Below are positions 3,431 through 22,391 of a stretch of DNA of 32,000 nucleotides, in pieces. Made by a program: the position numbers and the translations under genes. The notes beneath the pieces were generated by a model. The model worked only from the letters and a program-made list of their open reading frames with translations. It searched no databases and was not told the origin of the DNA. The DNA is taken from contig CAYORN010000003.1 in NCBI GenBank assembly GCA_964406405.1, forward strand, positions 146,689-178,688, read 5' to 3'. The stretch's first letter is position 1. The number at the start of each line of letters is the position of its first letter. This DNA comes from an uncultured Alphaproteobacteria bacterium (lineage in GTDB: Bacteria > Electryoneota > RPQS01).

Positions 3431-3496
3431 CTTACAGGATCTTTAGTTGTGCACCCACCTGGACTCGAACCAGGAACCCGCTGATTAGGAGTCAGC
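3431..3496 (-). repeat. Displaced 3' half of tRNA-Lys (att-type direct repeat, distal copy); not a functional tRNA
   Basis: 3450-3496 matches 22319-22365 at 46 of 47 nt, from the tRNA 3' end through the T-arm and variable loop to the 5' strand of the anticodon stem. The single mismatch changes the anticodon CTT to CCT. Similarity continues past the tRNA 3' end (3431-3449 vs 22301-22318, one indel). No D-arm or 5' acceptor strand follows. Confidence 0.85.
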
Positions 3497-3970
3497 GAAC
3501 GATACTTGATTTTAATTAACTTATGAACTGCGAGTGACGGTTTTGTGCCAGAAGTTGCGGAGGTCATGTGTGACTTCAACTGCGGCCTGTCACGTGGTGA
3601 CAACAAATGTCAGTAATCGGGGTGGGGAAGAGGATGATTTCCCACGCGACGCAACTACAGATGAGAACAGGATGCGCACATCTCTATCTGGCTAGCCGTC
3701 GCCAAGGACTACCCCAATCGATCGTAGTCCGAGACATCATGACCGCAGAAGCCTTTGCCTCATTTACTAACGCCAAGTCACGCCTTAATCCATGGCCCAA
3801 CAAGGAATTAACGCTAAGTATCCACCTCCCAAGCAAGCGACTCGCTAAATTATCAACATTTGACGCTTACCTTGATAATGTTCAGTAATTTGAGTAGCTT
3901 AGAATAGGGTTCTGGGGGCACGACTTCACCCCCGAGGATTTGGCCGCCCATTTTGTCTTGGAGCAAACGG

Positions 3971-4402
3971 ATGGTTGCTATTCTCAAGAAATGGAAATTG
4001 CGCTGGCAGAAGAAACCAGAGCAAGAGCTCGCGTCGAATGACATCATGTCTTCTATCGGGAGTCCTGTCGCCGAACCAAGCGCGGAAATGACTCGCCAGA
4101 TGCTGCAGTTCTTGCGAAATCCTGTTCTAATGCAGCAGATGGATGATCTCTTGGGAAAGGTCGGTCTTGGTGAATACGTACTGCCGCTTTATCGAAACGC
4201 GGCTGCAGAAATTCGTGAGGAAGACGTTCACTTGCTGGCAAAGCTGCTGAACAAACCAGAGCAAAATCATGTCTTCAGTGAGGATGAAATTCGGCGAGCA
4301 CTGATTCATTATCGTGTGGCTTCCTCGGCGCAATCCGTCGCCGAACAGGCGCGCGTATTTCGCGATTCTGGCACCTCATCAAGTCCCATCGGTGGACGGT
4401 AA
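3971..4402 (+). CDS. Hypothetical protein (about 143 aa)
   Basis: This is track ORF 3953..4402, which starts at TTG. The in-frame ATG 3971 has GGAG at 3960-3963 with a 7-nt spacer. I recognise no domain. Confidence 0.5.
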   Translation: MVAILKKWKLRWQKKPEQELASNDIMSSIGSPVAEPSAEMTRQMLQFLRNPVLMQQMDDLLGKVGLGEYVLPLYRNAAAEIREEDVHLLAKLLNKPEQNHVFSEDEIRRALIHYRVASSAQSVAEQARVFRDSGTSSSPIGGR

Positions 4403-4496
4403 AGAACTCTTCAGCGGCGAAGACTGTCCTCCTCCCTATTTGCCAACCTAAAATACGTGTTTTGCGTTACGAGTTCTCTTATTTCGGTCCTATCAC

Positions 4497-4841
4497 ATGA
4501 TGACTTCTAATCATCCCGACGGCGAGAAGCCCAAGCAGCCTGCGAACAAGACATCACCCGATCTCGATCTGAGTCAATTCGCCAATCTGATTGATCCAGC
4601 CACAGGCAAGACTTTTAGGGATGCCATGAGCGCGAAAGCCGAGCTGCTCAACCTTAAGGCGACACACTTTCATGACACCGGCGTGCGCGATTCGGCGATG
4701 CTTACGAGTGCGCCTCCGCCAGCGTATCAGTTCAGTGATCCGTATCGCGCTTCCGCTTCACGACACATTCCGCGCCGAAGTCGCATCAAAGCGTTTCTCA
4801 ATGGCGGTTTGAAAGAGCTCTTTCGCAAGAAATCGCGATAG
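4497..4841 (+). CDS. Hypothetical protein with a conserved basic C-terminal tail (paralog of 4861..5223)
   Basis: The ORF ends in ...IPRRSRIKAFLNGGLKELFRKKSR. This tail is shared with the next ORF at both protein and DNA level. Confidence 0.5.
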   Translation: MMTSNHPDGEKPKQPANKTSPDLDLSQFANLIDPATGKTFRDAMSAKAELLNLKATHFHDTGVRDSAMLTSAPPPAYQFSDPYRASASRHIPRRSRIKAFLNGGLKELFRKKSR

Positions 4842-4860
4842 GAAATCTGCCGCCTCTTTA

Positions 4861-5223
4861 ATGAGCCCATTCATGATTGATTCATCATCATCCACAAATC
4901 CTTCCCCGCCCGGAGATTCGGCACCCAAAGCCGATAAATCTCACCTTGACTTGAAACCCTCCGATGCCCAACAGAGTGCGATGAAGGCTCTGTCGTCTGA
5001 CGAGCAGGCAAGGGCCTATCACGGCGGACAGTATGCTGACGCGTCCATGACCGTTCGCCAGCCGGCAGAGCCAATTCGCGTCTCCAGCCAACTAACACCT
5101 GATGAAATAGAATTTCTAAGGGACCATGGTATTCTGATTTCTACTTCACCGCGTGCTCCGCGCCGAAGTCGCATCAAAGCGTTTCTTAGTCGCGGTTTGA
5201 AAAAACTCTTTCGCATGAGATAG
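4861..5223 (+). CDS. Hypothetical protein with a conserved basic C-terminal tail (paralog of 4497..4841)
   Basis: The ORF ends in ...APRRSRIKAFLSRGLKKLFRMR. It shares 29 identical nt (ccgcgccgaagtcgcatcaaagcgtttct) with the upstream paralog. Confidence 0.5.
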   Translation: MSPFMIDSSSSTNPSPPGDSAPKADKSHLDLKPSDAQQSAMKALSSDEQARAYHGGQYADASMTVRQPAEPIRVSSQLTPDEIEFLRDHGILISTSPRAPRRSRIKAFLSRGLKKLFRMR

Positions 5224-5351
5224 CCATCAGAGTCCTGCTGCCTTATGTCATTGACTGGCGAGCTTGATTGGTTGCGACCTAGCGCTGGCTCCGGCGGCAC
5301 ACAACCGACTGCAATTCTGTTTCACGCACGGCGTTCATAAGGAGATACTCA

Positions 5352-5720
5352 ATGCTAACTTCATCATCGCCCAAGGATCCTCCACTGCCTGGAGATCAAG
5401 TAGCCAATTCGAGCGAATTATACGCAAAAGTATACGGGTTGCTGAAAAGACAAAATGAAACCTTAAAAGAAGATAATGATGGATTGCAAAGGGAAGATGA
5501 ACGCATTCGGAGGCTCTTGGAGTCAGTCAAGACTCTCGAGCTAAGTGACGACGATATTCAGAAGATTTTGCCTGACCTGGTTCAGGCGCTCATTCCGAAC
5601 GCTTCCAGCGAAAGGGTGAAGGCATTCCGTGATCATGGCGGAAAGGATGAGGCTATGATGGTGTCTTGCAGACGAGAAATCCGTCCAGAGGAATTCACCG
5701 ACTCACGACGATACAAGTAG
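5352..5720 (+). CDS. Hypothetical charged, coiled-coil-like protein (122 aa)
   Basis: AAGGAG lies 7 nt upstream of ATG 5352. The sequence is rich in heptad-like charged stretches (KRQNETLKEDNDGLQREDERIRRLLESVKTLE). Confidence 0.6.
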   Translation: MLTSSSPKDPPLPGDQVANSSELYAKVYGLLKRQNETLKEDNDGLQREDERIRRLLESVKTLELSDDDIQKILPDLVQALIPNASSERVKAFRDHGGKDEAMMVSCRREIRPEEFTDSRRYK

Positions 5721-5794
5721 CACAAGCGGCTCGCCGTCGAGGCAATGCGGTCCGCGATTTGATCACTGATTAGTCTTGATGGTCAACGCGGCGA

Positions 5795-21109: not shown

Positions 21110-21175
21110 GTAGACTGCATGCGAATAGTTAACGGAGGCTTCGCATGCTGCGCCCTGCCTGCTTCTGAATGTCGG

Positions 21176-21667
21176 TTACTTGTCCGCAGCAGACGGGTGC
21201 GTAAGTTCGAAAACGCTGAAACAATGGGTAGCGTAGGCGGCCACATCGGCATGCCCCCGCTTGCCAAGAACGTCGCAAATCGTGTCATGCATCACATGCA
21301 GTGGAAAGGGCATCTCCAAGAAGCTGTCGAACCCAGCAAGCCGAACTGTTTCTGGGAGATCTTTCGCCACGAAACCGGAGTACGCGATCATCGCGATGCG
21401 AGAATCACGGTTACGGATTGATGTTCCTATTTCGACGCCGCGCTTCTGTATTCCAAACATGCATGTTGTCAGCAAAACTGGCGGTCCATCTTTAGCATAG
21501 TAATCGAGGGCATCGGCCACCGTGCTTGCAGTCGTTGTTTTGAATCCGTGTGCGTTCAGAAAGTTGACCATCAGGTCGCGGAGAACGCTGTCACAATCAA
21601 CGCACAACGCTCGGTAACGTGGAATCGCAGGATCTCCGTTAAGCGAATGCCGATCATTCAAACCCAC
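21176..21667 (-). CDS. Stand-alone degenerate (pseudo-)receiver domain protein
   Basis: The layout is CheY-like: ALCVDCDSVLRDLMVNFLNAHGF..TVADALDYY..PPVLLTTCMFG...IAMIAYSG...AGFDSFLEMPF. The phospho-acceptor Asp position reads Thr (LLTTC) and the conserved Lys reads Met (LEMPF). GTG start at 21667. Confidence 0.6.
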   Translation of the reverse strand: MGLNDRHSLNGDPAIPRYRALCVDCDSVLRDLMVNFLNAHGFKTTTASTVADALDYYAKDGPPVLLTTCMFGIQKRGVEIGTSIRNRDSRIAMIAYSGFVAKDLPETVRLAGFDSFLEMPFPLHVMHDTICDVLGKRGHADVAAYATHCFSVFELTHPSAADK

Positions 21668-21710
21668 GGGAATGCTTCCCTTTCTGATGAGTGATGCAGG
21701 GTGTCAACGT

Positions 21711-21737
21711 CGCCATGATGGTGATAGCGATAGCGAA
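21711..21737 (-). repeat. Partial copy C of the island leader motif (core ATCACCATCATgGCGA)
   Basis: The minus strand reads cgctatcgctatcaccatcatggcg. It lies between the pspC-like stop and the pseudo-receiver start. Confidence 0.5.
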
Positions 21738-21950
21738 TCACACGGCATCTTCGAGCGGCATGATGAGCCACGCAATCAAATACAGCAGGATTCCTGCTCC
21801 TCCTGCGAAGATCAGGAGAATCCACAGCAGGCGGATGAGAGTCGGATCTGCATTGAAGTAAGCACCAAATCCCGTGCAGACGCCGGCGATCTTTTTGTCC
21901 TTCTGGATTCTCACCAGCCGCTTGGGGGTGTTGCTTTCTGTTTCAGTCAT
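21738..21950 (-). CDS. PspC-domain small membrane protein (70 aa)
   Basis: MTETESNTPKRLVRIQKDKKIAGVCTGFGAYFNADPTLIRLLWILLIFAGGAGILLYLIAWLIMP matches the PspC-domain pattern. AGGAA lies 6-7 nt upstream of ATG 21950. The longer track ORF (to 22052) runs into the tandem repeat. Confidence 0.75.
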   Translation of the reverse strand: MTETESNTPKRLVRIQKDKKIAGVCTGFGAYFNADPTLIRLLWILLIFAGGAGILLYLIAWLIMPLEDAV

Positions 21951-21971
21951 TGGTGATTCCTGGCTTTCGGT

Positions 21972-22152
21972 TTCGCTATGATGGTGATGAACGCGAGCAG
22001 CCGAAGACAGGATCGGCAGTGCCGACGCTTCGCCTCCGGCTATCGCTGTCATCTTCGCTATGATGGTGATGAAGGTGACGGGCCAAAGACAGGATGAGCA
22101 GTGCCGACGCTCGGCCTACGGCTATCGCCGCTATCTTCGCTATGATGGTGAC
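21972..22152 (-). repeat. 82-bp tandem repeat (two full units plus a third motif copy) in the pspC-like leader
   Basis: The motif cgctatgatggtga recurs at 21974, 22056 and 22138 (period 82). The units are about three-quarters identical by eye. Confidence 0.85.
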
Positions 22153-22300
22153 AAGGGTAGAGGCAAAGATCAACGAACATCCTCAAATGTCAATATAGAC
22201 AAATCATTGACAAAATCCTCAATCGCGCTGTTAAGACATAAACTTACGTCGGATTACCGTTCAATACAGAGCAACAACAAAAAAGCCCGTAAGCTATTCA

Positions 22301-22365
22301 CTTACAGGCTTTTAGTTGTGCACCCACCTGGACTCGAACCAGGAACCCGCTGATTAAGAGTCAGC
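22301..22365 (-). repeat. Proximal copy of the att-type direct repeat (overlaps the 3' half of the intact tRNA-Lys)
   Basis: See 3431-3496. This is the same sequence in the same orientation. Confidence 0.85.
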
Positions 22366-22391
22366 TGCTCTACCAATTGAGCCATGGGTGC
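22319..22391 (-). tRNA. tRNA-Lys (anticodon CUU), 73 nt, CCA not encoded
   Basis: Folded by hand from the minus strand. Acceptor GCACCCA/TGGGTGC; D-arm GCTC-AATTGGTA-GAGC; anticodon arm GCTGA-CTCTTAA-TCAGC; variable loop GGGTT; T-arm CCTGG-TTCGAGT-CCAGG; discriminator A. Confidence 0.95.

Follow-up and report, generated by a model that had tools for sequence, protein, structure and literature searches.

In the tRNA-gene islands collected by Islander, an intact tDNA (tRNA gene) and a displaced direct copy of its 3' fragment mark the two ends (Hudson, Lau & Williams 2015, PMC4383910). In the anticodon-centred attP class (Williams 2002; class A of Islander), to which 2083 of the 3919 recorded islands belong, the block of identity runs from the anticodon stem-loop through the tRNA 3' end, and the same collection records 125 tandem arrays (PMC4383910). 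The cis-mobilizable elements (CIMEs) related to ICESt1 keep both attachment sites, attL and attR, have lost their integration genes and share the 3' end of the target with a related element, in tandem arrays built by successive site-specific integrations; decay to att-flanked derivatives without an integrase belongs to this CIME/accretion scheme (PMC5704250). Both tandem arrays and such derivatives are documented outcomes (PMC4383910, PMC5704250). The locus considered here lies in a window of 32,000 nucleotides (nt), the whole stretch of DNA that was analysed, from an uncultured Alphaproteobacteria bacterium (GTDB lineage Bacteria; Electryoneota; RPQS01; GenBank assembly GCA_964406405.1, contig CAYORN010000003.1, positions 146,689 to 178,688 of the forward strand). 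A preliminary description had taken it for a single genomic island lodged in a tRNA-Lys(CUU) gene, its distal tRNA fragment abutting the native chromosome. We find instead that the stump of a second element follows that fragment, and that the locus is probably a tandem array of two decayed integrative elements, here called A and B, both inserted through the attachment site of this tRNA gene.

The repeat on which the preliminary description was built is real. ARAGORN and Rfam find one tRNA gene only in the window, an intact tRNA-Lys gene with anticodon CTT on the minus strand at 22318-22391 (22318/9-22391 when the two programs are taken together; 71.9 bits against the Rfam tRNA model), which is the integration target. 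A repeat search of the window returns a 55-nt direct repeat. Its proximal copy, R2 (22311-22365, minus strand), covers this gene from the anticodon stem-loop to the tRNA 3' end plus 7 nt and is an attL-type core; its distal copy, R1 (3442-3496, minus strand), is a displaced tRNA 3' fragment. The two are identical at 54 of 55 positions, the sole mismatch being the middle base of the anticodon (G at 3488, A at 22357), which turns CTT into CCT in R1. A 29-nt core of the repeat occurs exactly twice in the window and was matched in none of 100 shuffles. The two copies remain similar for about 50 nt beyond the tRNA 3' end, to 3393 and 22262, though more weakly and with indels, and this stretch spans an intrinsic-terminator hairpin at both copies: at 3405-3445 after the distal fragment (minus strand, -24.1 kcal/mol, z = -6.4), where it is homologous to the post-tRNA-Lys terminator of two relatives, L003 and L092, and at 22279-22313 on the tRNA-proximal side (minus strand, -22.8 kcal/mol, z = -6.4). 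The distal copy has no tRNA 5' half and scores 19.2 bits against the tRNA model, under the gathering score of 29; none of the other RNA family models fits it. An intact tDNA and its cognate 3' fragment thus lie in the same orientation on the same replicon, as in Islander islands, and the repeat has its end at 22365, position 27 in tRNA numbering and the first base of the anticodon stem, so that the block of identity is that of the anticodon-centred class. On the single anticodon mismatch, the similarity beyond the tRNA 3' end, the displaced fragment and the attL/attR-type signature expected of an integration at the 3' part of tRNA-Lys, the preliminary description is borne out.

A half tRNA gene could also be duplicated without any site-specific integration, by segmental duplication or by homologous recombination between tRNA-Lys loci. 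The lack of an integrase inside the block, the homology that runs past the tRNA into the terminators and the existence of a third copy of the repeat (see below) would all suit such an origin. It does not explain why the repeat stops exactly where the anticodon stem begins, which is the pattern of the anticodon-centred attP class (PMC4383910), why a site-specific integrase family uses this tRNA in relatives, or why conserved arms are found on both sides of the repeats, and we consider it highly improbable.

It is the DNA beyond R1 that calls for a revision. Relatives of the locus were found through the YHS-domain protein of the right flank, and the tyrosine integrase of one of them, L004, defined a family of 17 proteins with at least 49% identity. 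A hidden Markov model (HMM) was built from these 17 members and used to scan 1105 stop-to-stop segments of the window. It matches 3119-3202 over profile positions 315-342 of 342 (E = 5e-6), the next best segment having E = 1.3. A tblastn search with the L004 integrase gives a match at 3140-3202, and four intact integrases each match these same 21 codons, with 57-71% identity. The match ends at the natural C-terminus of the family (..E-Q-L-P-Y-stop). The segment 3119-3205 (plus strand) is thus the C-terminal remnant of a tyrosine integrase, that of element B: the natural stop is kept, the catalytic tyrosine is replaced by phenylalanine (TMIFSH vs TMIYSH) and in-frame stops lie upstream. Of the complete tyrosine recombinase domain (R-K-H-R-H-Y), it represents profile positions 315-342 only. 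The search for integrase remnants near the distal boundary that the preliminary description had proposed gives no match with Pfam, Phage_integrase included, on the six frames of 2900-4450; only the family-specific HMM finds the remnant. The claim that no recombinase gene and no integrase were left holds for intact open reading frames (ORFs) but has to be amended for these 28 codons, which lie outside the island as first delimited.

The remnant lies on the strand opposite to the tRNA fragment, and the distance from its stop codon to the 3' end of the fragment is 244 nt, as compared with 230-258 nt in the relatives. The integrase-to-tRNA spacer of B (3206-3404) carries TTCGTC..GACGAA motifs and a AAACATTGGACTTACA box, and the spacer of the relative L095, searched with blastn against the whole window, gives two collinear matches, at 3139-3220 (E = 5e-12) and 3316-3382 (E = 4e-7). 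Three other observations were set aside: a box I-like match at 3327-3383, out of order and with E = 22, was rejected as due to chance, the HMM gives no support to the reading of an 'LRAT' sequence upstream of the remnant as box II, and global pairwise identities between spacers were discarded as uninformative. On the other side of the remnant, junction DNA (2881-3118) with no match to any family leads to the native left flank, where the homology to hdrA relatives ends at about 2878-2880.

Integrase-bearing elements use tRNA-Lys(CTT) in five relatives, with the integrase stop 230 nt (L004), 232 nt (L092), 258 nt (L093/94) and 250 nt (L179) from the tRNA 3' end. In L095/96 the contig ends inside the tRNA copy, 247 nt from the integrase stop, and a subgroup (P0124; L180-L182) uses tRNA-Thr(CGT) with a distance of about 248 nt. 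In every one of these loci the integrase reads toward the tRNA. L092 and L093/94 have the NtrC-like regulator and the Cache histidine kinase of the window's right flank, and are therefore occupied at the same chromosomal site; the YHS gene is shared by L092 only, the tRNA lying beside the NtrC-like gene in L093/94. The pairing of the YHS gene with tRNA-Lys(CTT) is also kept in L003 and L004. In L004 the tyrosine integrase comes directly after the tRNA gene, along with two HTH_17 genes and an AEP primase; in L003, whose YHS protein is 84% identical to that of the window, unrelated genes follow. The homology of the window to both relatives ends some 45 nt beyond the tRNA, once the terminator is passed. 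A shortened form of the family integrase, truncated at its N-terminus, is found with no tRNA nearby in L088-L090 (10001-10861), between a block of Dcm/Vsr, AIPR and NERD helicase genes and a CBASS-type block (SMODS cyclase and patatin). In IMG/VR, relatives reach 38% identity at most, and the pattern of arm plus repeat has no match in viral contigs.

Between the repeats lies island A (3497-22310), 18.8 kb long, in which Pfam, NCBIfam, PHROGs and the family HMM on six frames detect no recombinase. Its interior is compositionally foreign, moderately so, and the contrast is clearest at third codon positions: the GC content at these positions (GC3) is 0.48-0.60 (about 0.55) in island genes, as compared with 0.72-0.77 (about 0.74) in flank genes. 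The overall GC content is 52.6% in the island (3497-22317) and 57.5% in the left flank; on the right it is 56.8% at 22392-25500, 47.3% at 25500-27600 and 60.6% at 27600-32000. The preliminary description was right that the island is lower in GC than its flanks, but its estimate in the low to mid 40s % was too low, the measured figure of 52.6% standing against flanks of 57-61%. Tetranucleotide usage correlates at 0.75-0.89 between flank segments and at 0.51-0.78 between island chunks and flanks. The composition is thus not uniform across the boundaries; the preliminary description had named uniformity, together with the presence of the same genes at this locus in all relatives, as what would speak against an island. 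As regards distribution, sampled 31-mers of island A are confined, among the indexed public runs, to the source study, to which the four rock-metagenome runs X1-X4 belong. Three groundwater runs (X5-X7) contain the right flank at 92-99% identity, without island A and without the hdrA flank. Foreign composition and absence from close relatives, by which Islander islands are recognised, are therefore both found here, though without a clean empty-site junction.

The direct repeats, this compositional contrast and the lack of a recombinase between the repeats are what would be expected of a single island in tRNA-Lys whose distal fragment abuts a native hdr operon and whose integrase was lost without trace. 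Such an island would not account for the family-typical spacer and integrase C-terminus that follow the distal fragment, oriented and spaced as in intact elements. It also implies an ancestral site in which the hdr operon, tRNA-Lys and the YHS gene were contiguous. This predicted empty site was found neither among hdrA relatives nor among YHS relatives: none of the 80 metagenomic loci recovered in a scan with HdrA has tRNA-Lys(CTT) beside hdrA, and a scan of genome contigs with the YHS protein returned relatives of 42-52% identity only, without the tRNA. In L006, the closest usable hdrA relative (80% identity), the next genes are hdrC and hdrB, of which no trace was found in the window. Relatives of hdrA with about 93-95% identity occur in a set of runs disjoint from that of the right-flank relatives, and their homology also ends near 2880, about 560 nt before the repeat. 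Because hdrA relatives have no adjoining tRNA-Lys(CTT), L006 has hdrC and hdrB and the left-flank homology stops near 2880, the contiguous site probably never existed, and we regard a single island as rather improbable. The most plausible origin of the hdr junction is a later event, deletion or rearrangement, in which element B was cut short. The first gene downstream of the tRNA in L003 has no relative closer than 61% in the protein collection, and none of its relatives is placed in the source genome. A 200-nt contig of run X5 that joins 3449 to 22318 was considered as an empty site and rejected as ambiguous, since it has 4 mismatches over 48 nt and one of its sides is only 41 nt long.

The ends of A carry further marks of the family. 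The tRNA-proximal end (22239-22313, minus strand) comprises the terminator hairpin and the first 40 nt or so of the integrase-side arm, and is homologous to the tRNA-integrase spacer of L092 out to 22239; a MAFFT alignment suggests that the arm continues to about 22175, where blastn gives no support. At the other end, a distal arm (3497-3531; called arm X1, not to be confused with run X1) abuts R1 directly. It is identical at 21 of 30 positions, with the same junction, to the sequence that follows the third repeat copy of the source run; a copy in run X5 is also similar to it and returns to the window sequence at 3532. Read in the orientation of the tRNA, the locus begins with the tRNA 5' half and R2, continues with a terminator, the partial arm and island A, and reaches R1 after arm X1. 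Beyond R1 come a second terminator, the spacer, the integrase stump, about 240 nt of junction DNA, a zinc-ribbon gene and hdrA. Since the stretch that starts with R1 resembles the tRNA-proximal end of an intact family element, element B begins at R1, and A is placed between B and the regenerated tRNA gene, as would be expected after two successive integrations at one tRNA.

Taken together, the repeats, the remnant and its geometry, the spacer homology, the composition, the distribution and the use of the same site in relatives point to a tandem array, which we consider the likely structure of the locus. The order of events that we propose is as follows. Integrases of this family would recombine an element-borne copy of the tRNA, from anticodon stem to 3' end, with the chromosomal gene. 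Element B would have integrated first, giving the succession tRNA, terminator, spacer, integrase. Island A would then have entered the regenerated tRNA gene, at a crossover presumably placed within the repeat, and pushed the tRNA copy of B (R1), its terminator, spacer and integrase to the distal side. B would later have lost everything beyond the last 28 codons or so of its integrase, by a break that now abuts the zinc-ribbon and hdrA genes. A would have lost its own integrase, or would never have had one, having been inserted by the enzyme of B. Because its own integrase is absent, A cannot move by itself; in principle, it might still be excised by an integrase of the family acting in trans or in cis.

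One must consider that this arrangement could be an artefact of assembly at a multi-copy repeat. The 55-nt repeat is present in at least three copies in the source metagenome. The third copy, which lies outside the window and is seen in X1-X4, matches 22282-22365: at the end of a 24-kb contig (depth 26), a terminator identical to 22282-22346 at 62 of 65 positions is followed by an intact CTT repeat and an arm like X1, identical to 3497-3526 at 21 of 30 positions. Another contig of the source run begins with GGACGACTCTTGATTATGC. If the assembly were wrong, A could be a free circle with an attP site made up of its terminator side, the repeat and arm X1, or could abut the 24-kb contig, the hdr flank coming from another locus or genome. 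The data at k = 31 fit several pairings, contigs of every relative and run break at the repeat (several relatives' contigs do so at the tRNA itself), and island A forms a contig of its own (18,883 nt, 3458-22340) in X1 and X2, being split in X3 and X4. The depth of the island is close to that of the flanks, but a little above the left flank's in three of the four runs (in X1, 29.3 vs 23.9, the right flank having 33). In addition, the relatives of the left flank (1-2880) come from runs of sediment, river, peat and soil (X8-X23) and those of the right flank (22392-32000) from X5-X7, two disjoint sets. On the other hand, the depths of the left flank, the island, the right flank and the third-copy contig co-vary across the four runs, with ratios of 0.73-0.90, the two flanks are alike in GC3 and tetranucleotide use, and the G variant is found joined to arm X1 alone, in agreement with the window. 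Ordinary short reads are longer than 55 nt, and a read-aware assembler should bridge a repeat of this length. An artefact is therefore, in our view, quite improbable. The depth data allow one junction only between the repeat and the tRNA 5' half (36, as compared with 33 in the flank); the third copy accordingly looks like an orphan attachment site of the same genome.

Several points weigh against a tandem array. The remnant is only about 28 codons long. Among the fetched flanks of L004, L092, L093, L095, L179 and L180, no distal repeat was found, so that no complete element of the family is available with both ends, and the att arms and the crossover position are deduced from one-sided comparisons. 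The other genes of the four intact integrase elements have no detectable counterpart in the window, and no cargo of A is shared with intact family elements; the membership of A in the family is therefore assigned from its ends. Beside the intact tRNA, the arm is supported by blastn over about 80 nt, and its putative continuation comes from the MAFFT alignment. No clean empty site was recovered. Contigs built at k = 31 cannot link the two sides of a 55-nt repeat, and the pairing seen in the window is that of its own assembly. Finally, disjoint run sets for left-flank and right-flank relatives are not expected of one contiguous chromosome.

How does the locus compare with the described systems? 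The likeness to Islander islands lies in the intact tDNA with its displaced direct 3' fragment, in the block from anticodon stem to tRNA 3' end, in a tyrosine integrase family tied to the site and in a second element in tandem. The difference is that Islander requires an integrase gene in each island; there is no tyrosine integrase inside A and only a 28-codon stump in B, so the Islander filters would reject both. The likeness to CIMEs lies in the attL and attR flanks of A, in the lack of its own integration and transfer genes and in the tandem arrangement with a related element at the 3' end of the target. The evidence for its attachment sites consists of the 55-nt cores, identical at 54 of 55 positions, a distal arm conserved in other copies and a proximal arm that is partly conserved. 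The locus differs from the CIMEs in that its partner element is dead, its host belongs to an uncultured environmental lineage and conjugation or mobilisation genes were found nowhere in the window; for this last reason, descent of A from an integrative and conjugative or an integrative and mobilizable element is conjectural. Both CIMEs and tandem accretion were reportedly described by Pavlovic et al. in 2004 for ICESt1-related elements of Streptococcus thermophilus. The locus is thus an ordinary kind of tRNA genomic island and leaves current understanding unchanged.

The large genes of island A are all on the minus strand. Beginning at the distal side, a protein of 1045 amino acids (aa) encoded at 5795-8932 combines a TIR domain, a STAND ATPase and TPRs (Pfam TIR_2 1.4e-12, AAA_16 6e-5, TPR_12 1.3e-19). 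It is followed by an 879-aa protein (9028-11667) ending in a pair of RyR domains (Pfam RyR 2.5e-21; ryanodine-receptor repeats of PDB 2e-16), whose N-terminal 700 aa have no family assignment, and by a 1094-aa DUF4062-NACHT-TPR protein (11797-15081; Pfam DUF4062 3e-14, NACHT 2e-10, TPR_12 3e-25). Six repeats within the latter gene (12059-12887, period about 120 nt, 61-72% identity) are the coding counterpart of its TPRs and not a separate feature. A 579-aa SLATT-domain protein (15095-16834; Pfam SLATT_1 8e-7, NCBIfam SLATT_1 3.8e-12, above cut-off) is a predicted two-helix membrane effector. Further on, a TIR protein (17103-18176), a SLOG protein (18874-19656; Pfam LDcluster4 SLOG 3e-6) and a second TIR protein (19898-20899) are encoded, the two TIR proteins scoring 1e-13 and 1.4e-17 against Pfam TIR_2. 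The tRNA-side block (20902-22052) contains a 128-aa ORF, a stand-alone receiver domain (21176-21667; Pfam Response_reg 6e-8) and a PspC-domain protein (21738-22052; Pfam PspC 1.7e-24). At the distal end of A, on the plus strand, five small ORFs of 93-149 aa (3607-5720; GC3 0.48-0.58) are putative genes with no match in Pfam, NCBIfam or PHROGs. Two adjacent ones, 4497-4841 and 4861-5223, have in common a 105-nt 3' repeat (78% identity) encoding ..PRRSRIKAFL..GLK.LFR.., and look like paralogues.

A 25-nt motif, TCATCACCATCATAGCGAAGATGAC, which contains TCATC-N14-GATGA, is present in six copies on the minus strand (19794-19818, 21083-21107, 21703-21727, 21966-21990, 22048-22072 and 22130-22154), the last three within 82-nt tandem units. 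It stands before four predicted transcription units of the cargo, upstream of the SLOG gene, the 128-aa ORF, the receiver gene and the PspC-domain gene, and looks like a candidate shared operator for part of the island.

Judging from its domain content, the cargo is most likely devoted to anti-phage or other conflict signalling. Conflict systems assembled from TIR, SLOG, SLATT and STAND modules are said to have been surveyed by Burroughs et al. in 2015; Thoeris is a further example. No catalogued defence system is recognised by PADLOC or NCBIfam: the TIR proteins give weak, domain-level matches to ThsB of PADLOC (26.7 bits) and ThcB4 of NCBIfam (25.9 bits, where the cut-off is 220), far under what these models require, and there is no ThsA-type SIR2 or Macro partner, as Thoeris would have. 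The defence function of A is proposed from domains. The density of TIR, STAND NTPase-TPR, SLOG and SLATT genes is reminiscent of defence islands on integrated mobile elements (PMC10201445), as is the position of related integrases in L088-L090 amid CBASS-type, AIPR and Dcm/Vsr genes. A bolder view would make A a live, integrase-less immune-type cassette with functional att sites, moved in a CIME-like hitch-hiking by tRNA-Lys family integrases that a neighbouring or distant element provides; the third copy would represent the missing half of an array broken up when such elements recombined, and the cargo a co-regulated, uncatalogued multi-gene defence module. We hold this to be unlikely.

Some features of the flanks may be mentioned. 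hdrA (278-2770) is a single frame with an in-frame TGA at 908-910, and is split by ORF callers into 278-910 and 926-2770. This codon and its context are conserved in L005, L006 and L007 despite synonymous changes nearby, and it is most likely a selenocysteine codon. In the right flank, a second segment of low GC content (25478-27606; 47% GC, GC3 about 0.5) contains a 215-aa ORF and a DUF4136 gene. One contig of run X5 passes from 25477 to 27607 with only 4 additional letters between them, and in X5-X7 no depth is seen at 25602-26243 and only traces over the rest. The segment is probably a further small insertion of variable occurrence. A 21-nt self-complementary element, TCCCCCCACTTCGTGGGGGGA, REP-like (after repetitive extragenic palindromic sequences) or terminator-like, is present in two copies (24664-24684 and 25446-25466) that flank a gene of the DinB family, and a related sequence is present in L003.

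Three aspects are unusual, and count as leads rather than findings: the integrase-less state of an island that keeps both repeat cores, the orphan third site and the uncatalogued cargo. The value of the analysis lies in the correct annotation of the locus and in the lead to a gene set of TIR, STAND, SLATT and SLOG proteins that has not been catalogued. In decayed tRNA islands, the integrase may survive as a few codons beyond the displaced tRNA fragment. An island scored as integrase-less may thus be the inner member of a tandem array, both elements of which would be missed by island finders that require an integrase. The work also defines a tyrosine-integrase family that is specific to tRNA-Lys(CUU) except for one subgroup, which uses tRNA-Thr(CGU). 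This family has a fixed integrase-to-tRNA geometry, is found in uncultured lineages and often travels with defence-type cargo.

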